64,000 nt of DNA, from the NCBI GenBank assembly GCA_965262235.1, contig OZ253504.1:2582354-2646353 (forward strand). The letters run 5' to 3'. This DNA comes from Dehalococcoidia bacterium (GTDB lineage Bacteria; Chloroflexota; Dehalococcoidia; Bin125). The stretch's first letter is position 1. Every line of letters begins with the position of its first letter. The notes beneath the pieces are model-generated. The model did not search any database, was not told the DNA's origin, and saw only the letters and a program-made list of their open reading frames with translations. Shown here in pieces: positions 2,588-42,811 of this stretch. A program made the translations under genes and the position numbers.

Positions 2588-2785
2588 TCAGTCGCTGACC
2601 TCTTCGAAGGAGAAAGACCGGACGCCGATGCGCTCGCTGGCGTGTTCGAGGGTGATCGCGCAGAGTCGGCCGCCGGAGTCGAACTCAAGCAGCGTTTGCT
2701 CGTCAAGGTCGCGGGATTCCTCAATCGGCTCGGCGCACAGCTCGAGGTAGAGCGTGTCCGTGTCGGCGAAGTAAGTGACCTTCAT
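2588..2785 (-). CDS. DUF2283 domain protein
   Basis: MKVTYFADTDTLYLEL... matches the DUF2283 N-terminus. Start trimmed to the internal Met at 2785 (ORF track extends to 2905). Lies 20 bp downstream of the MTase gene on the same strand. Confidence 0.55.
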   Translation of the reverse strand: MKVTYFADTDTLYLELCAEPIEESRDLDEQTLLEFDSGGRLCAITLEHASERIGVRSFSFEEVSD

Positions 2786-2804
2786 GGCGTGGAATTCGTT
2801 GGCG

Positions 2805-5732
2805 TCAGATGACGAGCTTCGCGCCTGGGGGCCGCGCTTTGCCGCCATGCACGGAGGGTTCGGCGCACCACTTGGCGGCAAGTCGGCGCACTCCTTCGTA
2901 GACATCCTCGTCGAAGCCGAGCAGGTCGCAGATGACTCGCCGGTCGAGCAAGGCGCGATTGGGGTCGGCGTCCGCGAGGTAGGCGGGCTCGAGTTCTAGT
3001 TCGCGGAACTCATCGAAGATCGCTTCGGCATTGAAGAGCTGGATTGCGTTCAGCGAAGTCAGGTCGAGTATAGGCAAGTTGTGCATTGTCTTGACAGTCA
3101 TATCACCTCTCCCTGCCTGTGAGCGATTCGAGTGCCACCAATAGAGGAGCAGACCAAGGGTGCAATTTCCCCACAACGCAAAAGCGCAGTCATATGTATC
3201 GTTATCGAAGATGACGTTCGGCCAGGCACGACCTCCGGCGGCTTTTGTCTCGGTCATGGCCACTGCCAGAGGTTGAGAAGTGAACCGAAATCCCCGGCTA
3301 ACGTGTGAGCGGCTCACTGATTCCCACCGGTTAGATGCATTCAACTCCATGCCTGGTCGCACGATGAACTGCGAATCTGGGTGGCAGAGTATTTTGGTTT
3401 CCCGTTGAGCATTGTGTGTCCACAACGCAGGATAAGTCGCGGTCGGACTTGCAGAGGCTCGTTTGAACGGACCCTTGTGCGCGGTACTAATAAAGAGCTG
3501 AGAGTCGAGACCTCGACGGCCGATCTTGCCGAGAGCCGAAATTGCTAGTTCTGTGGGGTAGGCGTTCGGTGGGAGCCATAGCTTCCCATCGGAGAGCGAA
3601 GCGGCGATCTGGCCCACGGCTGCATCCGAGAGCCGCGCGGCTCCCCATCCAGCGTCAGAGTGAGGTGCCGGAGCGTCCAGAGTCTCTCCCACATGTTCGT
3701 CACCGATGGAGACAATCGTTCCCCCAAATGGTCCGCCTTCGACCTTTCGGATGGATTCATGGCGCGAAAGGGCCATCGCCATCCCGCTCGCATCGGCAAG
3801 GTTTCGGGGACGTCCGAGAATTGACGTGAACTTGCCGCGCGAGTCGGCGTCGCTCGGTACACGTTTCGCAGGTCGCTTTCTGGCGATGACCAGGCATTCG
3901 GCCACCCCGGTATCGTTGGAGAACGACAGGGCATGGTCCTCGCCCTCCGCGATGGTTAAGATCGTCAAGTCTTCATACTCCGCTGCGAGTAATGTCCGCA
4001 CTTTCTTCCAAGAAGACGCGTTGACCATTGATGCAAGCAGCACAAAAGCCATTACTCCTCCCTTCTTCAGCTTTCGATGTGCTATAGAGACGAATGCCGA
4101 TCCCAGGCCCGCGTGACCGTGATACGTAGTGCCTTTCGCCAGCTTCTTCACCTCAGCAGCCATGTCCGCTTGGTCTGCTTCAGTGGCGTTGAATGCGGCG
4201 AAAGCGGCGTTCAAGACCGCGTCGCCTGCATCAAAGTGCTTGGTATTACTGGTGAACGGCGGATTCATGATGACCAGATCGAAGCCGATGTCCGGAATGT
4301 CAACGGTCACCTGCGCCGCGGTCTCCTCTCCCGCACTGCCGGTGCGGAGGGCAGGATCGCTGGTGTTGAAGAGCGTTAACAGGTGCGATTCCTTTAGCAG
4401 CTCCAGCGAGCCGACCTGTACGCCGCCGTCTTCCTGGCGTCCGTAGGGCATCGTGTAGAGGCGCGACTGTTGATAGTCGATGTTGGGCTGCCCGCCGGCC
4501 AGAGTTGCGCCGGTGATGTGCACCGCCGAGGGCATCACGTCGCAGCCGTAGAGGACTTGCTCCATCATCGGGGCGTGGAGCTTGGCGGGATCGCCGCCGG
4601 CGCGTTCGTGACGGGCGGCGATCTGGTCGTAGACGGCGGAGAGCAACGCGCCGGTGCCACAGGCGAAATCGCCTACGCGGAGTTTGCCGATGGCGTCCGC
4701 ATCGGACCAGTCGATGTCTTGCAGTTTGGCGACCGCGAGGCGGGCCAGCAGCGCCGCGGAGGCAGGGCGGGTGTAGAACGTGGCGAGGTACTTCCGGTCG
4801 GCGATCAGGCGCTGGAAGATGCGGCCCGTGAGGTCATGCGCGTTGTCGATTCCGGCCGCGTCTATCTCTTGGGCGGTCTCGCGCAGTGCGGCGAGGATGT
4901 GCGCGGCCGCGCCGGACGGCAGTTGCTCGACGATGTCCTTGGCGATGGCGAAGATGGGGAAATAGTTGATCGCGAGGATCTGGTCCCAGGCGGAGAGTGT
5001 TTCTTCCTGCGGGTTGGCGACGCCGGGGCCGCAGACCATGTGGAGCGGTTTGACGCCCTCGTGCATGCCGGCGATTCGTTCGTGGAAGACAAGCGCGTTG
5101 GCGATGATGGCGCAGGCCATGCGGCGGGTCTGCGGCACGTTGCGCATGCCGAGCAGATCGGCGACGGCGCGCACGATTCCGCGCTGGGTGTCGCTCATCT
5201 CATCGAGCACGCTGGCGGCGCGCTCGATCCCCGCCTGGAGGGAATCGGCGGCCCGGTTCACTTCCTTCTGCGGCATCGAGACGAGCCGGATCAGGTCGGC
5301 GAGGTCCTCGATTCCACCGTCCAGCCAACCTGATTCGGGGAAGCGGATGCGCCGCTCGTCCTTGTCGAACTCGTCGTAGAGCACGCACCAAGAGAGGCGC
5401 GTCTGCTGCAGGGCCTCGTTCAGGTCAGCTGCGGTGCGCAGCGGGGTGGGATAGCGCAGCGCGATCGCCGCTTCGATGGCTCGCGACTCACCGATGACAA
5501 TCCTGCCCAGCCGGTCGGCGGCTTCTTGCTCGGCGGTGTAGGCGGGCATGAACTCCGCTTCGACGACGACGGGTGATCGGCCGGGCGCGGTGATCAGGTT
5601 GTCGAGCTGCCAGGCAGGATGTCCGACGATCAGCTGGGTGTGCTCGGAGCGAACGAGGCAGGCCCCCACCATCCGTTTCAGCAGACCGCCCAATGCGGTG
5701 TTGACGCTCGGCTCCGTCTGTTGGGAGGGCAT
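2805..5732 (-). CDS. large N6-adenine DNA methyltransferase-domain protein, Type IIG/IIL (MmeI-like) or PglX-like
   Basis: Gamma-class MTase motif I DFACGTGALL and motif IV NPPF about 140 aa downstream. 975 aa with about 340 aa N-terminal to the MTase core and about 450 aa C-terminal (TRD-like). The C-terminal half (about 3000-4100) is markedly AT-richer than the flanks. Confidence 0.75.
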   Translation of the reverse strand: MPSQQTEPSVNTALGGLLKRMVGACLVRSEHTQLIVGHPAWQLDNLITAPGRSPVVVEAEFMPAYTAEQEAADRLGRIVIGESRAIEAAIALRYPTPLRTAADLNEALQQTRLSWCVLYDEFDKDERRIRFPESGWLDGGIEDLADLIRLVSMPQKEVNRAADSLQAGIERAASVLDEMSDTQRGIVRAVADLLGMRNVPQTRRMACAIIANALVFHERIAGMHEGVKPLHMVCGPGVANPQEETLSAWDQILAINYFPIFAIAKDIVEQLPSGAAAHILAALRETAQEIDAAGIDNAHDLTGRIFQRLIADRKYLATFYTRPASAALLARLAVAKLQDIDWSDADAIGKLRVGDFACGTGALLSAVYDQIAARHERAGGDPAKLHAPMMEQVLYGCDVMPSAVHITGATLAGGQPNIDYQQSRLYTMPYGRQEDGGVQVGSLELLKESHLLTLFNTSDPALRTGSAGEETAAQVTVDIPDIGFDLVIMNPPFTSNTKHFDAGDAVLNAAFAAFNATEADQADMAAEVKKLAKGTTYHGHAGLGSAFVSIAHRKLKKGGVMAFVLLASMVNASSWKKVRTLLAAEYEDLTILTIAEGEDHALSFSNDTGVAECLVIARKRPAKRVPSDADSRGKFTSILGRPRNLADASGMAMALSRHESIRKVEGGPFGGTIVSIGDEHVGETLDAPAPHSDAGWGAARLSDAAVGQIAASLSDGKLWLPPNAYPTELAISALGKIGRRGLDSQLFISTAHKGPFKRASASPTATYPALWTHNAQRETKILCHPDSQFIVRPGMELNASNRWESVSRSHVSRGFRFTSQPLAVAMTETKAAGGRAWPNVIFDNDTYDCAFALWGNCTLGLLLYWWHSNRSQAGRGDMTVKTMHNLPILDLTSLNAIQLFNAEAIFDEFRELELEPAYLADADPNRALLDRRVICDLLGFDEDVYEGVRRLAAKWCAEPSVHGGKARPPGAKLVI

Positions 5733-5798
5733 GATTCTAGGTTAGGCGGCAGTGACTGCGCCGCACAACCGTTCGAGGACAACCGGAGATGTCACTCT

Positions 5799-6179
5799 TC
5801 ACCCGGGTTCCGCATCAGGCGGATATAGCCTTCGCGTTCGAAAGTCGTCCATGACCTCCATGGAGATGCAGTCGACCAGGCTGCAAGTCTTGTCGGAGAG
5901 ATTTTCGTAACGAGTAAGTGCTCGCGCGAAGAGGCCAGGGCGTTGCGCGACGACTTCAATGTTAGGGTTCGCATATAGACTACGGGTCAGTTTGGCGGCG
6001 GCGGCGCGAAGCTGCCGTCGCTTGTTCAAACGCGCCAGCACTTCGCTGAGCACACTGTCGGTAGTGACGATCTGCGCGTGTCCGACCGCTTCCTCCGCGA
6101 CGACGGCGGCCTCGTGAAGGTTATCCGCCGGATTGACCTTTGCGATCCAGAATGCGGCGTCAGCGAACACGCGGTGCAT
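5799..6179 (-). CDS. PIN-domain nuclease
   Basis: MHRVFADAAFWIA...IVTTDSVLSEV...SLVDCISMEVM...DD shows the PIN acidic residues. Alternative upstream start at 6227 would overlap the preceding gene. Confidence 0.55.
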   Translation of the reverse strand: MHRVFADAAFWIAKVNPADNLHEAAVVAEEAVGHAQIVTTDSVLSEVLARLNKRRQLRAAAAKLTRSLYANPNIEVVAQRPGLFARALTRYENLSDKTCSLVDCISMEVMDDFRTRRLYPPDAEPG

Positions 6180-6198
6180 CGGGAGAACACCCGTGGGA

Positions 6199-7113
6199 TC
6201 AGTGAGCGGCGCTGAAATAGTCGTCATGCCGGGCTGCCAAGTCTTGAGGCAGGGAGCCCCACTCGTCGTCAGGGACAGCTGCGAAGGCGGCGGTGACCAT
6301 CTCAGAAACGGTGGGGGCGGTCGGGTCGAACACCCAGTTTTCTAGACTGACATCGTCGATCGAATCGACGCGGTCGATGCGGTAGATTTCACCGTCGCTC
6401 CGGTAGCGTCCGAATCCGCGGACTCGCAGTTCGATCGAGTCGTGCTCGTGCAGGGCAGCTGTGATTTGGTCTTCCTGTTCCGGGGAGAAGATCGCGTTGA
6501 CGGACTCCGTCGTGCTCAACCATAGCTGGAAGGTGTGTCGGTGCACGTCGGCGGCGAGGACACGGCCAATCACGTCAACGATGTCATCAACGGTGTTGGG
6601 AAGGCGCCGGCGGAACTGTGCGCGTGCGATGTCATTGATTCGTGTCGGACGGCGATTCGCCGGCACGAATGCCAATGTAGCTCCGGAGGGAAGTCGCGAC
6701 CCAAGCTGGGCGTAGGTGTCGCAGAGGCTAGGGGTGAGTGCGGACGGCGGTTCCGTATCGCCTGAGACGGCGTCGTATGCGTCGCCCATGAACTTGACGG
6801 CCTCCGACAGTTCATTGTCGAACAGATCAAGCTGCTGGCCAGCAGTAGGCGAGCGGTCAAGGATGACAATAGTACTGCCCGATCTGATCTCGTGCATATG
6901 CACTTGTAGCGAATCAGTGAACCGCCGTGGCAATCGTTCGCGGTGCGGGTGACTCAGTTTCCACCTGGCCTTGGCAGTGTCAGAAATCGCACGCATGACC
7001 TTGACGACTTCCTCGAGGGCGCGATCGTCCAAGGCGCACGAGTCGTAGATGCCGCCAGAGAAACGCAGTTCGACGAGGGGGCTTTTGCTTTGGTCCATCG
7101 GTCCACTCCGCAC
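6199..7113 (-). CDS. hypothetical protein (304 aa), first gene of the MTase-containing cluster
   Basis: Long ORF with the lower-GC codon usage of this islet; no recognisable motif. Co-directional and tightly spaced with the PIN and MTase genes. Confidence 0.45.
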   Translation of the reverse strand: MRSGPMDQSKSPLVELRFSGGIYDSCALDDRALEEVVKVMRAISDTAKARWKLSHPHRERLPRRFTDSLQVHMHEIRSGSTIVILDRSPTAGQQLDLFDNELSEAVKFMGDAYDAVSGDTEPPSALTPSLCDTYAQLGSRLPSGATLAFVPANRRPTRINDIARAQFRRRLPNTVDDIVDVIGRVLAADVHRHTFQLWLSTTESVNAIFSPEQEDQITAALHEHDSIELRVRGFGRYRSDGEIYRIDRVDSIDDVSLENWVFDPTAPTVSEMVTAAFAAVPDDEWGSLPQDLAARHDDYFSAAH

Positions 7114-36652: not shown

Positions 36653-37342
36653 ATGGTGACGACGCGGACACGGCCGGCGGGAGCAGTGGAGGCCGCCGGT
36701 CCGGCCCCCTGGGAGATGCTGACGATCTGTCTACCGGAGGAACTGAAGTTGACCGACGGGCTGCTGGAAGAGCTGAGCGGCCTCAACCCTCACTGGAAGA
36801 TCGAGCGCGGACACGACGGGGAGTTGGTGCTGACGATGGCCTCGGGCGGAGCGAGCGCAGTGATCGGTGGGAAGATTGGTAGCAGGGTCTGGGCGTGGCT
36901 GGAATCTGGCGGCGGTGGAATCGCGCTCGACGCGAGCGCCGGTTACAACGTGATCGACCCCGAGGGCGGCGCGCCGATGCGCAATCCCGACGTGTCCTGG
37001 ATCAGTGACCAACAACTCGAGCCGATGGACGGCGTGCCGCCCCGCGAGGGGTTCTGGGATCTGTGTCCCACGTTCGTAGTCGAAGTACGCTCGCCGAGCG
37101 ACACGGTCGCGGCGCAGCGCCGACGGATGGTCGACTGGATCCGCTTTGGCGCGCAGCTAGGCTGGCTGGTCGACCCGCAAGGCCGTGCGTTGTGGATTTA
37201 TCGGGCAGACGGGGAGCCTGAGCAGCTGGAGCGCCCCGCTGCGGTGAGCGGCGAGCAGGTGCTGGAGGGCTTCGTGTTCGACTTCACGCCGATCTGGACG
37301 ATGCTGGATCGCGGGGACGAAGCGGCTGATCACGCTGAGTGA
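36653..37342 (+). CDS. Uma2-family (DUF820) putative endonuclease, paralog of 19604-20296
   Basis: PTFVVEVRSPSD...RRRMVDWIRFGAQLGWLVDP; highly similar C-terminal half to the other Uma2 copy. Confidence 0.7.
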   Translation: MVTTRTRPAGAVEAAGPAPWEMLTICLPEELKLTDGLLEELSGLNPHWKIERGHDGELVLTMASGGASAVIGGKIGSRVWAWLESGGGGIALDASAGYNVIDPEGGAPMRNPDVSWISDQQLEPMDGVPPREGFWDLCPTFVVEVRSPSDTVAAQRRRMVDWIRFGAQLGWLVDPQGRALWIYRADGEPEQLERPAAVSGEQVLEGFVFDFTPIWTMLDRGDEAADHAE

Positions 37343-37401
37343 AGGGCATGCGCTTTGGTCTCGGCGCGCGGAGGCGATTACGGGCTTTTCCGGTTGAGTG
37401 A

Positions 37402-39544
37402 CTAATGCAGGTGTCGAGCGTCTTCGTTCATCGAGCGACGGTCGGTCTGTTGCTCGCGATCCTGACGCTTGTGTTGTCGGGTTCGTTGGCGCGGGCGCAG
37501 GATCCTCCGCTGGGGGTGGAGGTGCTGTAGGGCGGTTGAGGTTGGGCTGGGACACCGCTTCGGGCAAGATTGGACGCTGGTCTCGCCGCAACGGCGCATC
37601 CTCGCCGCGGACACGCCCGCCGACGCCTGGCGCGTGAGTTCGGCGGTCGGCGTGCCGATTAGCCCGACGCACGTGCGGATTACGATCGAGAATCGAGGCG
37701 CCTGGACCGACGCGCGCAGTGCGGGCGAATTCGTCGCGCAGATCAACCAGGTGCGTCAGTGCAGCCGCTGCGGCTGGTTGAGGCTGCAGCTGAGCGATGA
37801 TCGGCTCGAGCTCCAGACCTACTCGGACGACTGCACCCACCTGACCGCGATCGGCGCTACGGACATCGCGAATCCCATGAGCGAAGGACGGCAGGAGCTG
37901 CGCGTCGCGGCGCGCCGCCTGGCAGGCGGCGGGATCGAACTGGGACTCCAGCGCCGCGCCGAGTCCGGCTGGGACGCTCTCCAGCAGCCGGAGGATTCGA
38001 TCGTCCCCGCCGATCTCACGGTCGGCGTCTGGTATGCCACATCGCCGATCTCGCTGCCGCCGCCGCCGGCCAGCGTGGAAGCCGACCTGCGTCGCGGCGC
38101 ATCGATCGAGAGGGTCGGAGATGAGCTGCAGGTCAGCGTCGACGGCACGACCTACCGCACCAACTGCGGAGAGCTCCAGCTTCGTTCGTTCCGGACGACA
38201 CTGCTGTTGGACACGCGCGACGAGCAGTGCGATCGGTCGGTCGCGCTCGCCACGGTCTGTGCCTCGGCGGACGTGGGCCGCGACTGCGGCGTCCAACGGA
38301 CCCAGGCGTATCGCTGGGAGACGCGCCAGGAGCGCACCGCGAGGTTCGGGCACATACCGCTCACGGAGACGGAGACGGAGACGGAGACGGAGGACGTTGT
38401 CGACGCGATATTCGCCGACTACTTCGCGTCGGGGCGACGCGCTCCGAGAGTGGTCGCCTGGAGCGGTGATACCGCCCACTTCGACGGCGCCAAGAACCAG
38501 ATCGTTCTCTCCGAGAGCAGTTTTGCGTTCGACACCGTCGCACATGAGATGAGTCACGCGCTGCTGTCGGCTGCGCGGATTCGGAATCCCGGCCACGACG
38601 GCTCGCACACCGCGCTGATCATGGAATTTTGGGGGCGCTACGTACTGCTGATTGATGTTTCTGAGGCGCGAGCTGACGCGCGCGCGAGCGATCTCGATGT
38701 CGCCGAGCGACCGCGTCCGGCCCCGCGAGGCGACGCTGGCATCGTGGCGGTGCGAGACATTCTCTGCGCTGAGTCCGTGACGTCGGACGCGCTCTGCCGC
38801 GCCTTCGATGGGCAGATGTCAGTGCTCGGCGCGCAGGCGACCACTGACCTATACCTCGGCAGTGGGAGGCGCGGTGACGATTTGTCGTGGACGACGGGCG
38901 TTGATTCCCAGACGAGCGGCATGTGGACCTCTATCAGGCAGGACGCTGCAGTCGTGGGGGCGTCGGACGCGCGGGCGCTATTTCGGGTCAGATGCACCAC
39001 CGCAGACGAACTTGATCTCCGTGTTTGGTGGTCCGGCGTTCCCGACCTCAATGGTGAGGTGACCTACCAAATCGGAGAACTTCAGGCCGTCGACGCTCGC
39101 TGGCTCACCGGCAGCGGCAGCGGGCCGGGCGGACCGTGGCTGTATCACCAGGCGCCGGGTCCTATGGGCATTGCGCGCGCGTTCAGCTGGGCCGCCCGTT
39201 CAGGCGGAGAGCTGAGCTTCAGCTTCGAGCTCTACGGGCGGATTTATTCAACCACGTTCGATCTCGATGCGATCTTCAACACACCGGCGCAACCGAATCT
39301 CGCGCAGTGTGGGTCGCTCGCGGAGCCGCCGGCGCTCGGTGAACCGGTCACGGGGTTTTGTCGGTACGGCCCGCATTTCTGGTGGAACACGCAGCTGAAC
39401 TCCGAGACGGGCGCGCTGCTCACCGCTGTGGTCCGCGAGACGGCAGTCGAGGGAGCGGATGCGGCGCTCGCGCGCCTCCGGGTCGTATGTGTGTACGACG
39501 ACACGCTGGCTGTGACCTGTGGTGGCGTGGCGTTCCGGAACTGA
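37402..39544 (+). pseudogene. secreted HExxH-motif protein gene with an apparent frameshift after the signal peptide
   Basis: 37402-37530 encodes a signal peptide (MQVSSVFVHRATVGLLLAILTLVLSGSLARAQDPPLGVEVL*) ending in a stop. The 691-aa ORF (37469-39544) continues in the +1 frame. A G5 run at 37512-37516 is the likely indel site. Body contains FAFDTVAHEMSHALL (HExxH). Confidence 0.45.
38363..38392. repeat. (ACGGAG)x5 hexanucleotide microsatellite encoding (TE)5
   Basis: Five perfect tandem ACGGAG copies inside the HExxH ORF. Confidence 0.9.
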
Positions 39545-39813
39545 GCCCCGATGTGAGCTTGCGGATCGGTGAGCTTCCGCAGCAGGACGTGACCTCGCTG
39601 ACGAGCATTGGCAGATGGGGGGACAACGACTGGAGCTTCCACGGGGCGCCGGACTCTCGCTCGCTCGTGCAGGCGCTCGGTTGGGCCGCCGGCGCCGGCG
39701 CCAACTTCAGCGTCAGCTTCGTGAGCGACGGGGCGACCTACAGCGCCAGCTTCGACCGCGACGGGCTCTTCGAGACACCCGTCCAGCCCAACCTCGCGCG
39801 CTGTGGGCATTAG
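39515..39813 (+). pseudogene. frameshifted second copy of the about 95-aa C-terminal domain of the HExxH protein
   Basis: Alternate frame reads DLWWRGVPELSPDVSLRIGEL...FSVSFVSDGATYSASFDRDGLFETPVQPNLARCGH, paralogous to RVWWSGVPDLNGEVTYQIGEL...FSFELYGRIYSTTFDLDAIFNTPAQPNLAQCGS upstream. A 1-nt deletion relative to copy 1 lies just before TGGTGG. Confidence 0.4.
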
Positions 39814-39843
39814 ACTGCCCGCCAACGACTGAAGGAGACCGCC

Positions 39844-41091
39844 ATGCATTTGATGTACTTCACCGAGCAACCGATGTCGGCCTATGACGAGGCGTCGGCT
39901 GAGGAGGGCGTGACGGCGCTGCTGTTCCCCAACTCCAACTTCGACTCGGAGGCGGGCAGCCGCCTCTACCGCGACCGCCTGACCGAATACCAGTTCGCCG
40001 AGGAGGTCGGGGTCGACGGGATCATGCTGAACGAGCATCACAACGCGCCGTTCTGCATGCAGGCGAAGTGCAACATCTGGGCTGCCGTGCTCGCCGGCGC
40101 GACCGAACGGGTGAAGATCGTGCTGCTCGGCAACCCGCTGCCGCTGGCCGACAACCCGATCCGGCTCGCCGAAGAGCTCGCGATGATCGACATGATCTCG
40201 CAGGGCCGGCTCGTCTCGGGCTTCGTCCGCGGCGGCGGTTCCGAGCAACTCGCGACCGGCGTCAACCCGGCCTACAACCGCGAACGCTTCGAGGAGGCCC
40301 ACGACCTGATCGTCGAGGCCTGGACGCGGCCCGGTCCGTTCCGCTGGGAGGGCAACCACTACCAGCACCGCGTGGTCAATCCCTGGGCGACGCCGATGCA
40401 GCAGCCGCATCCGCGGATCTGGATTCCCGGTGTGCTCTCGCGCGAGACGGTGGTCTGGGCGGCCAAGCACCGCTACCCCTACATCGCGCTGAACACCACG
40501 ATCGAGGCGACCAAGCGGATCTGGCAGACCTACGACGAATCGGCGCACGAGGTTGGCTACGACCCGGGCCCCGAGAACCGCGGGTACCTGCTGCGCGTGC
40601 ACGTCGCGGACACGACCGAAAAGGCGATCGAGAACGCGTCGCAGTTCATGTGGATGCAGGGTGAGTTCACCGGCCTCGCGCATCCGGTCTGGAGCAACCC
40701 GGCCGGCTACGCCTCGCCGCGCAACCGCGAGGCGTTGGTCGAGGTGATGAACGGGCGCCGCCCGCCGCCGCGCGCGAGCACCTTCGAGAACCAGATCGAA
40801 AACATGCAGATCATCGCCGGCACGCCCGACGAGTGCATCGCCAAGCTGCGGATCATCCTCGAAGCGACGCGGCCCGGCATCCTCGCGCTGTGGGGCAACG
40901 ACGGCCGCGTGACGCATGAGGACTCGATGCGCTGCATCGAGCTGCTCGGCACCGAAGTCATGCCCGCCGTCCGCGAAATCGGCGCCGAGCTGGACCTCGA
41001 CGGGCCGTTCGACTCCGAGCCGCCGGTCAGCATCCGCTACGACGAAGCCGCTCAGGCGCGAGTCGCGGCGGGCGCAGCGGCCGGCGACTAA
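39844..41091 (+). CDS. LLM-class flavin-dependent oxidoreductase (luciferase-like monooxygenase)
   Basis: MHLMYFTEQP start, TIM-barrel LLM pattern, 415 aa. Confidence 0.85.
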   Translation: MHLMYFTEQPMSAYDEASAEEGVTALLFPNSNFDSEAGSRLYRDRLTEYQFAEEVGVDGIMLNEHHNAPFCMQAKCNIWAAVLAGATERVKIVLLGNPLPLADNPIRLAEELAMIDMISQGRLVSGFVRGGGSEQLATGVNPAYNRERFEEAHDLIVEAWTRPGPFRWEGNHYQHRVVNPWATPMQQPHPRIWIPGVLSRETVVWAAKHRYPYIALNTTIEATKRIWQTYDESAHEVGYDPGPENRGYLLRVHVADTTEKAIENASQFMWMQGEFTGLAHPVWSNPAGYASPRNREALVEVMNGRRPPPRASTFENQIENMQIIAGTPDECIAKLRIILEATRPGILALWGNDGRVTHEDSMRCIELLGTEVMPAVREIGAELDLDGPFDSEPPVSIRYDEAAQARVAAGAAAGD

Positions 41092-41136
41092 CCGACCAAC
41101 ACGCTCGCCAACACGTTCGAAGGCACTGAGGAGATC

Positions 41137-41913
41137 ATGGCAACCATCGACATTCTGCTGCACGGCTACTCGTTCGGGACCGACTCGGGCACGCCGGCGT
41201 TTTGCAGCGTCATCCTGGTCGAGTCCGAGGGGCGTCGGGTGCTGGTCGACACGGCGCACGTCGGCCGTCGGGTCCAGCTCCAGGAGGCGCTCGCTGCGCG
41301 CGGCCTGACCGCCGACGACATCGACGTGATCCTGATGACGCACGCGCACTGGGACCACGTGCAGAACTTCGACGCGTTCCCGAACACGCCGATGGCGATC
41401 CACCCGTGGGAGCGCAAGTACGCCAGCGATCCGCACGTCAACGACTGGGCCACGCCCAAGTGGACCGGCGCGGCGATCGAGACGCACACGCTGCAGGAAG
41501 TCAGCGAGGGCGACGAGTTGGCCAAGGGCGTCACAGTGATCGATCTGCCGGGTCACTCGCCCGGCAGCATCGGCCTGCTGGTCGAGACCGAGGCGGGTCT
41601 TGCGGGCCTGACCGGCGATGCGATGCACACCGCGGCGGCCGGGATCGCGGGGCGCAGCCCGCTGGTCTTCTACAACGAGACGCAGGCCAACGACAGCATC
41701 GCCAAGATCGTCTCCGCAGCCGAGTTGCTCTACCCGGGCCACGACCAGCCGTTCCGGATCGTCGATGGCGCGCCGGTCTACATCGAGCCGTTCAAGCTGA
41801 CGCTCTCGGGCGTACAGCCACAGATGGAGGGGCTCACCTTCGCGCCGCCGCCGGCGGGTCCGATCGTGCCCTGGATCATGCCGGGCATCGGGGATCAGCC
41901 GACGTACGACTAA
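41137..41913 (+). CDS. MBL-fold metallo-hydrolase
   Basis: THAHWDH metal-binding motif and DLPGHSPG. Confidence 0.8.
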   Translation: MATIDILLHGYSFGTDSGTPAFCSVILVESEGRRVLVDTAHVGRRVQLQEALAARGLTADDIDVILMTHAHWDHVQNFDAFPNTPMAIHPWERKYASDPHVNDWATPKWTGAAIETHTLQEVSEGDELAKGVTVIDLPGHSPGSIGLLVETEAGLAGLTGDAMHTAAAGIAGRSPLVFYNETQANDSIAKIVSAAELLYPGHDQPFRIVDGAPVYIEPFKLTLSGVQPQMEGLTFAPPPAGPIVPWIMPGIGDQPTYD

Positions 41914-41926
41914 GCTCCGCCAGCGG

Positions 41927-42811
41927 GTGCGCATCGCGCGAATCGGCGGCCGTCGGGTCGCGTATGAAACGTATGGCGACCCGCGCGGCCAACCCGTCCT
42001 GATCATTCACGGCGCCTGGGGCGGGCCGTCGTCCAGCCTGTGGAACGGGCCGCGCCTGCGTTGGTCAGCGCCCACCGATGGTCTGCGCCTGATCTGGTAC
42101 GACCGCCGGTGCGCCGGTCTCTCGCAGTACGACACGCAGCCGTTCGCACTCGAGGACCTGGCATACGATGCCGTCGAGGTTCTCGACTACCTGCAGATTG
42201 AACGGGCCGCGGTCATCGCGACTTCCGCAGGTGGTCCGATCGGCATGAGATTGGCGCTCGGTCATCCGGACCGGGTCTCAGCCCTGGTGCTGCTCAACAC
42301 GGGCGCGGCGTTGATGTCGTTGAATCCAACGGGAGTCAATCTCGACGACCCGTTCGTCGCTGATCGGCTCGAGACGGTCGCCAGGCGCATCGGGCTGTTG
42401 AAACTCATGGAATCCAAGGGCGTCGAGGCGGCGATTCAGCAATCCGAAGAGGAGTGGCGAACGCCGCCGGAGCCGGAGAGCGCGGATCCAGAGCTGGCTG
42501 CGTTTCGAGCGAATCGTCTGCGTGCCCTGAGCCGGTTGTCGCAAAGCGAGCTGGTGCGGCTGGGGCGAGGAGCCTTGCTGAACATGCAGGCGCAGCGGGG
42601 CATTGACCTTGCTGATCGACTGCACGGGATCAACTGTCCGACTCTGATCGTCCACGGAGATGCCGACACGACCGTGCCCATCGACTTCGGACGCGCCACG
42701 GCTGAGCGGATCTCAGGAGCCGAACTCGCCATTCTCCATGCCGCTGGCCACGGTCTGATCGCTCATGCCCAAGCGCAGTCCATGCTGGCAAAGTGGTTGT
42801 TGGGAGTCTAG
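41927..42811 (+). CDS. alpha/beta hydrolase
   Basis: VLIIHGAWGG, ATSAGG nucleophile elbow, C-terminal HGDADTTVP...AGH. Confidence 0.75.
   Translation: MRIARIGGRRVAYETYGDPRGQPVLIIHGAWGGPSSSLWNGPRLRWSAPTDGLRLIWYDRRCAGLSQYDTQPFALEDLAYDAVEVLDYLQIERAAVIATSAGGPIGMRLALGHPDRVSALVLLNTGAALMSLNPTGVNLDDPFVADRLETVARRIGLLKLMESKGVEAAIQQSEEEWRTPPEPESADPELAAFRANRLRALSRLSQSELVRLGRGALLNMQAQRGIDLADRLHGINCPTLIVHGDADTTVPIDFGRATAERISGAELAILHAAGHGLIAHAQAQSMLAKWLLGV

Follow-up and report, generated by a model that had tools for sequence, protein, structure and literature searches.

The gene on the plus strand at positions 37405 to 39813 of the window (the whole 64 kb stretch of DNA that was analysed) is probably a genuine, recently inactivated and decaying pseudogene of a fast-evolving gene for a secreted, zinc-protease-like protein of an uncultivated member of the Dehalococcoidia. 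Intact orthologues lie in a shared gene order, lesions disrupt the reading frame, and constraint has been lost on the window lineage. Three readings had been offered from the letters of the DNA alone. That of a decaying pseudogene is upheld by the orthologues, several independent lesions and the substitutions, that of a homopolymer-driven contingency locus finds no support, and that of an assembly error we judge unlikely. The event itself is ordinary and, as a pseudogene, the locus is of little importance. The protein family is uncharacterised, and the annotation is corrected in that the deposited 636-residue protein is a fragment.

With the provisionally repaired window protein as the query, full-length relatives were found of 803 residues and 84% identity (P0001), 805 residues and 81% (P0002) and 806 residues and 71% (P0005), together with distant relatives of about 800 residues and 34–41% identity (P0007–P0009). 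A further match, P0003, is a fragment of 636 residues with 100% identity and represents the gene call of the window's own 3.43-Mb contig. Comparison with orthologues in related genomes, which the sequence-only reading had suggested as a check, reveals intact single-frame genes at the matching position in assemblies of related Dehalococcoidia. Such genes, encoding 799–808 residues, are present at loci L001–L003 and L007–L012; at the six further distant orthologous loci the intact single ORF, 799–808 residues long, holds the HExxH motif and a C-terminal QPNLxxCG ending. In the close and two distant relatives the order of genes is shared in whole or in part. An M1 aminopeptidase, an alpha/beta hydrolase and usually Uma2 precede the protease-like gene, and downstream lie a luciferase-like monooxygenase, an MBL-fold hydrolase and a second alpha/beta hydrolase. 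Synteny covers the full flanks of L001, L003 and L009 and part of those of L002 and L010, with L007, L008, L011 and L012 assigned by sequence match alone. The region is evidently the remnant of a single gene for a protein of about 800 residues.

The neighbourhood is plastic. Two Uma2 genes follow the gene in L010 (5000–6509), an N6/N4 methyltransferase is inserted and Uma2 is absent in L009 (8438–9325), and a DDE transposase lies downstream in L001 (11997–12944).

Three consecutive plus-strand ORFs were confirmed by reading positions 37200–40100 together with the ORF listing. The residual 5′ ORF (37405–37530) encodes 41 residues, MQVSSVFVHRATVGLLLAILTLVLSGSLARAQDPPLGVEVL, comprising a signal peptide and ten mature residues, and closes with a TAG stop at 37528–37530. 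Its N-terminus aligns up to GVEV with the intact orthologues P0005 and P0001 and, by inspection, is a signal peptide because of a basic residue, a hydrophobic core and an A-R-A/QD site. The earlier description of a signal-peptide ORF ahead of a body in the next frame is therefore accurate. The body ORF (37469–39544, 691 residues) occupies the frame next to that of the 5′ ORF, and the tail ORF (39358–39813) is in the first frame again.

Alignment with the orthologues and an AlphaFold2 model of P0001 delineate the parts of the gene. Beta module 1 (37532–37888, second frame), matched to the strands at residues 38–156 of P0001, has had its first strand and turn removed by a deletion. Beta module 2 (37889–38278) opens with a RQELRVAARRLxxGGIELGLQRR hairpin that repeats the motif of module 1. 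A putative SprT-like minimal zincin domain follows (38279–38818). The HExxH motif reported in the body is found there, in the segment FAFDTVAHEMSHALL (38522–38566), as HEMSH at 38543–38557, and a conserved Gly-His within 38588–38608 contributes a candidate third zinc ligand. Two IalB-like beta domains complete the protein, copy 1 at 38843–39313 and copy 2, divided over two frames, at 39344–39810. A premature TGA at 39542–39544 closes the body ORF past the second frameshift, and the stop codon with which the ancestral gene ended is still there at 39811–39813, after QPNLARCGH.

The two C-terminal copies pair without gaps over 152 residues with 41% identity (E = 4e-33), far beyond chance. The duplication seen in the first reading of the letters stands, with a domain of about 150 residues and not about 95. 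It is evidently ancient rather than recent, because both copies occur even in orthologues of only 34–41% identity. No third copy or paralogue was found within the window.

Lesions were located in a MAFFT alignment of DNA from the window and five syntenic loci (six sequences), supplemented at the 5′ end by protein alignment. Lesion 1, at 37520–37535, is a net 23-nt deletion with the loss at 37525–37535 and shifts the frame by +1. The orthologues read GVEV-R[LV]VA[RQ]VL[DE][SG]G-AVEVG, compared to the window where only 7 nt (CTGTAGG) separate GVEV from AVEVG; eight conserved residues of the beta hairpin are missing at the junction. Set against L001, whose allele is the closest here, the window sequence has lost 18 nt between two AGGTGC direct repeats, a GGGCG-GGGCG tandem is down by one unit, and a G>T change at 37528 makes the TAG stop. 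The G5 homopolymer at 37512–37516, proposed as the indel site, is not where the damage lies. It is G5 in six of the six aligned sequences, and the deletion sits a few bases downstream. A G5 to G4 repair was considered and rejected; it opens a frame but gives GWRCCRAVEV, a mismatch to the orthologous GVEVRLVARVLDSGAVEV, and the run is invariant.

Lesion 2 is a 1-nt deletion at 39517/39518 that shifts the frame by −1, a T being missing from the window (ACC-TG) relative to the orthologues (ACCTTG). In the DNA alignment the window reads GTGACC-TGTGGTGG and the orthologues GTGACCTTGTGGTGG or GTGACCGTGTGGTGG, confirming the suspected single-base loss just upstream of TGGTGG. The missing T belongs to a TT dinucleotide, and at neither frame-breaking lesion does a homopolymer exceed 2 nt. 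The two deletions total −24 nt (−23 and −1), a multiple of three, and the first and last ORFs are therefore in a common frame. Lesion 3 is an in-frame hexanucleotide repeat, (ACGGAG)5 at 38363–38392, which exceeds its orthologous counterpart by 12 nt and places Thr-Glu where the family has the invariant Ala-Gln of an E-A-Q motif.

Is the gene still under constraint? Private amino-acid changes were scored against conserved columns, defined as those identical in three distant orthologues. Of the window's 36 private changes, 12 strike such columns (W>S, L>R, P>L, D>G and G>C among them), compared to 13 of 131 in the intact lineages L001–L003 (Fisher p = 0.0013). With four indel-adjacent changes removed the figure is 8 of 32 (p = 0.036). 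The expectation for an unconstrained sequence is 28%, from which the window is not different (p = 0.46) and the intact lineages are (p = 7e-7). The private changes of the window gene strike conserved positions as expected without constraint, and this signal is independent of indel calling. The dN/dS on the private branch of the window is approximately 0.57, not clearly higher than the 0.41–0.58 of the intact lineages; therefore the neutral period appears to have been short and constraint to have been lost recently. Pairwise dN/dS of the gene is 0.39–0.59 for all pairs, intact against intact included, whilst the neighbouring genes give 0.00–0.31, mostly ≤0.25, at similar dS. The argument for decay is weakened because the family was already under weak constraint. 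The six flanking genes together span about 7 kb of coding sequence; every one of them is complete, reads through without a frame break and shares 84–100% amino-acid identity with its orthologue.

The consequences can be envisaged as follows. The net 23-nt deletion just past the signal peptide would split the export signal from the rest of the protein and make a stop, such that translation from the native start would yield only the 41-residue peptide. An internal start in the body frame, for example GTG 37634 or 37652 (the deposited call, P0003, starts at one or other of these), would give a product without the signal peptide, short also of the first hairpin and of some 100 C-terminal residues. 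The second, 1-nt deletion would cut short the last domain, and the repeat expansion and several radical substitutions may later have struck invariant residues. A cytoplasmic fragment of this type is unlikely to function because the family has many invariant cysteines and is apparently built for export.

The window gene is one of several damaged copies: of six close strains, three have a broken gene (that of the window, L004/L006 and L005). In L004 (about 3924–3944) and L006 (about 6032–6052; OZ250140.1) a G8 run has gained 1 nt, some 20 nt from the position of the window's deletion, owing to which the gene call starts late (733 residues). L004 and L006 match at 100% over a stretch of 10.2 kb and hence are not independent evidence, and their frameshift could be a sequencing error given the 5.9x coverage of the L004 contig. 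L005 (4001–6417), on the 33x contig ctg60135_33x_l, lacks one A where the surrounding sequence is not repetitive, and its gene is called in two pieces of 554 and 251 residues. The gene of L003 (4001–6418, 17x contig), from the same sample as L005 (ERZ25072854) and 99.5% identical to it over the gene, is intact.

Do the lesions belong to the organism or to the assembly? An artefact, in which the organism's gene is intact and the long-read assembler or a mixing of strain reads at a hypervariable locus made one or both of the frame-breaking indels, is the less likely answer by some distance, and there are grounds for taking it seriously. A benchmark reports that metaMDBG assemblies carry indels backed by no read, which corrupt ORFs and affect thousands of genes (bioRxiv 10.1101/2025.04.22.649783), and contigs of the relatives bear metaMDBG-style names. 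A Wellcome Sanger genome note on a sponge also used metaMDBG and lists Dehalococcoidia MAGs, a tentative pointer to the source habitat that carries no weight in the argument here; a literature search for the sample and contig accessions gave no papers. On the 4x contig L002 the otherwise conserved downstream alpha/beta hydrolase is divided over two frames (5403–6286), so low-coverage contigs of such data can carry frameshifts in conserved genes. The frameshift of L004/L006 falls in a homopolymer on a thinly covered contig, and a mosaic, strain-variable locus is a setting in which consensus errors are likelier. The window allele is also without independent confirmation, as it occurs in a single contig of the protein collection searched and an exact-match scan of JGI metagenomes for its deletion junction found none. 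However, a 23-nt loss between direct repeats coupled to a substitution would be unlike a polishing error, the single missing T comes from a TT pair and not from a long homopolymer, and the six neighbouring genes are free of frame breaks. Two signals do not depend on indel miscalls: the excess of radical changes among invariant residues, and the expanded repeat lying over an invariant motif. We infer that the lesions are present in the organism's DNA and not merely in the assembly.

Two further explanations were weighed. A contingency, or phase-variable, locus in which reversible slippage at simple repeats toggles a surface protein is suggested by the disruption of a secreted or surface-type, fast-evolving gene in half of the close strains, by the frameshift within the G8 run of L004/L006 and by the in-frame hexanucleotide repeat, the length of which differs among strains. 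For the window it is very improbable, since both frame breaks are outside any repeat tract able to slip back, the G5 run does not vary, a 23-nt deletion is irreversible and conserved residues have been lost too. Programmed recoding, with a +1 then a −1 ribosomal frameshift producing the full-length protein from three ORFs, would be compatible with shifts that cancel and leave the first and last ORFs in one frame, but we give it almost no credence. Every intact orthologue is single-frame, the eight hairpin residues are absent at the 5′ junction, and no slippery heptamer was seen at either junction on reading the sequence. Nor is the arrangement conserved in any relative, the frameshifts of L004 and L005 being at other positions. 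The pseudogene remains our preferred reading.

The locus evolves quickly. Across the wider clade the protease-like protein retains 34–41% identity, compared to 74–78% for the M1 peptidase and 81–93% for the monooxygenase. The gene is also a mosaic. A 5′ patch (37430–37705, the first 280 nt or so) is 90–95% identical to L001 and 73–84% to L002–L005, and a 3′ cassette (38906–39804, the last 900 nt or so) is 83–100% identical to L002–L005 and 52–71% to L001. Between the allele classes dS exceeds 1.2 in the C-terminal cassette; it is 0.06–0.13 in the zincin domain and 0.1–0.4 in the flanking genes, with most at 0.1–0.26. Mosaic structure and cassette dS imply recombination among strains. Being much less constrained than its neighbours, mosaic and disrupted in half of the close strains, the gene is a candidate strain-level variable surface factor in this uncultivated lineage. 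A bolder proposal is that of a hypervariable, recombining surface-protein gene, repeatedly knocked out in co-existing strains because its loss is favoured, for example in evading a phage or host by which it is recognised. The window would then be a snapshot of an arms-race locus and not of random decay. We regard this as possible but doubtful; selection could underlie the recurrent loss of a variable exported protein, and on the present data relaxed constraint is the simpler reading.

What did the intact protein look like? The HMM search proposed for the repaired translation gave no Pfam or NCBIfam family above threshold. An exhaustive profile search identified 1,499 representative proteins with shared parts, 47 of them at E < 1e-30. 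The AlphaFold2 model of the orthologue P0001, built on a 43-sequence alignment with a mean pLDDT of 89.8, displays an N-terminal helix (residues 3–30) and two beta modules (about 33–160 and 165–300), each opened by a hairpin of the form [VL]RVxARxLxxGxhEhGhQ...W. An alpha/beta domain (about 301–475) carries H384-E-x-x-H388 and G400-H401, and two beta domains of about 150 residues follow (about 485–640 and 650–803). In P0001 numbering H384, E385, H388 and G400-H401 are invariant in the family alignment; the window has HEMSH...PGHDGSH.

The candidate ligand set of the SprT-like proteins is present, with HExxH and a downstream histidine as the candidate third zinc ligand. The Pfam SprT-like profile (PF10263) scores 15.1 bits, under the gathering cut-off of 25.6, and gives sub-threshold matches in 20 of 43 relatives (best E = 5.7e-5). 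With the model, other minimal zincins, namely selecase, abylysin, HtpX and ArdC, also came up. The model of the duplicated C-terminal domain gave a fold match to solved IalB; the Pfam IalB family (PF06776) matched neither the protein nor its 43 relatives, and a profile search of the PDB with the IalB-like domain returned no IalB chain. Sequence searches of the PDB with profiles of the whole protein, the IalB-like domain and the zincin domain produced no usable matches, and with the whole model Foldseek found none in the PDB at E ≤ 0.001. From the modelled structure the central domain looks like a SprT-like zincin and the C-terminal pair is IalB-like in fold, sequence-based membership being reached in neither case.

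The beta-hairpin module of about 60 residues (RVxARxLxDGxhEhGLQ...W; 37532–37700 and 37889–38060 in the window) has no counterpart in Pfam. Copies of it occur in hundreds of proteins, some of them 1,000–4,000 residues long with LRR, cadherin/Calx-beta or RCC1 repeats (P0052, P0054–P0056 and others), and it looks like an undescribed extracellular module. An extracellular role is in keeping with the LRR, cadherin, Calx-beta, LysM or RCC1 repeats of relatives that have it.

As a working model, the ancestral protein may have been an exported or surface-held zinc protease, with the beta modules and the IalB-like pair binding the target. The intact orthologues define an unannotated exported architecture of SprT-like zincin, tandem IalB-like domains and the hairpin module, parts of which occur in approximately 1,500 representative proteins, giant proteins with LRR, cadherin or RCC1 repeats among them.

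Elsewhere in the window a GC3 frame scan for more frameshifted genes over the 64 kb gave no clear case. A 920-residue ORF on the minus strand (39244–42006), antisense to the luciferase-like and MBL-fold genes, looks like a spurious product of high GC content because the GC3 coding signal and the orthologue matches are on the plus strand; the same applies to several more long antisense ORFs in the window. Also on the minus strand, a 975-residue ORF (2805–5732) contains NPPF, a motif characteristic of N6-adenine DNA methyltransferases, shows a weaker GC3 signal in its 3′ half, and is followed by a small ORF (2588–2905) with a product beginning MKVTYFADTDTLYLEL. The junction at 2588–2905 was considered as a frameshift and rejected in favour of a separate small gene. 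An acquired island of the defence or restriction type may lie at 2588–5732.

With the SprT-like/Spartan (Wss1-type) minimal zincins (PF10263; PDB code 6mdx) the protein shares the HExxH helix, a conserved Gly-His about 13 residues on, a small alpha/beta domain as judged by the model, and Pfam matches that are consistent though sub-threshold. It differs in possessing a signal peptide and conserved cysteines, on account of which it is probably extracellular, and in its partners, which are beta-sandwich and IalB-like domains with no match to a DNA-binding family in Pfam. In view of the signal peptide, these partner domains and a score short of the Pfam gathering cut-off, a role in DNA-protein crosslink repair would not be expected. 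The likeness to IalB, the Bartonella invasion-associated locus B protein (PF06776; PDB code 3dtd), does not extend to sequence, and IalB is a stand-alone protein of about 180 residues whereas here a tandem pair is fused to a protease domain. As is usual for bacterial pseudogenes of surface or secreted proteins, the locus combines small frame-breaking deletions at short direct repeats with further lesions, intact neighbours and a function that is present or absent from strain to strain. Nothing essential sets it apart from them; what is unusual is that so many lesions crowd into a single gene and that two other close strains have independent frameshifts.
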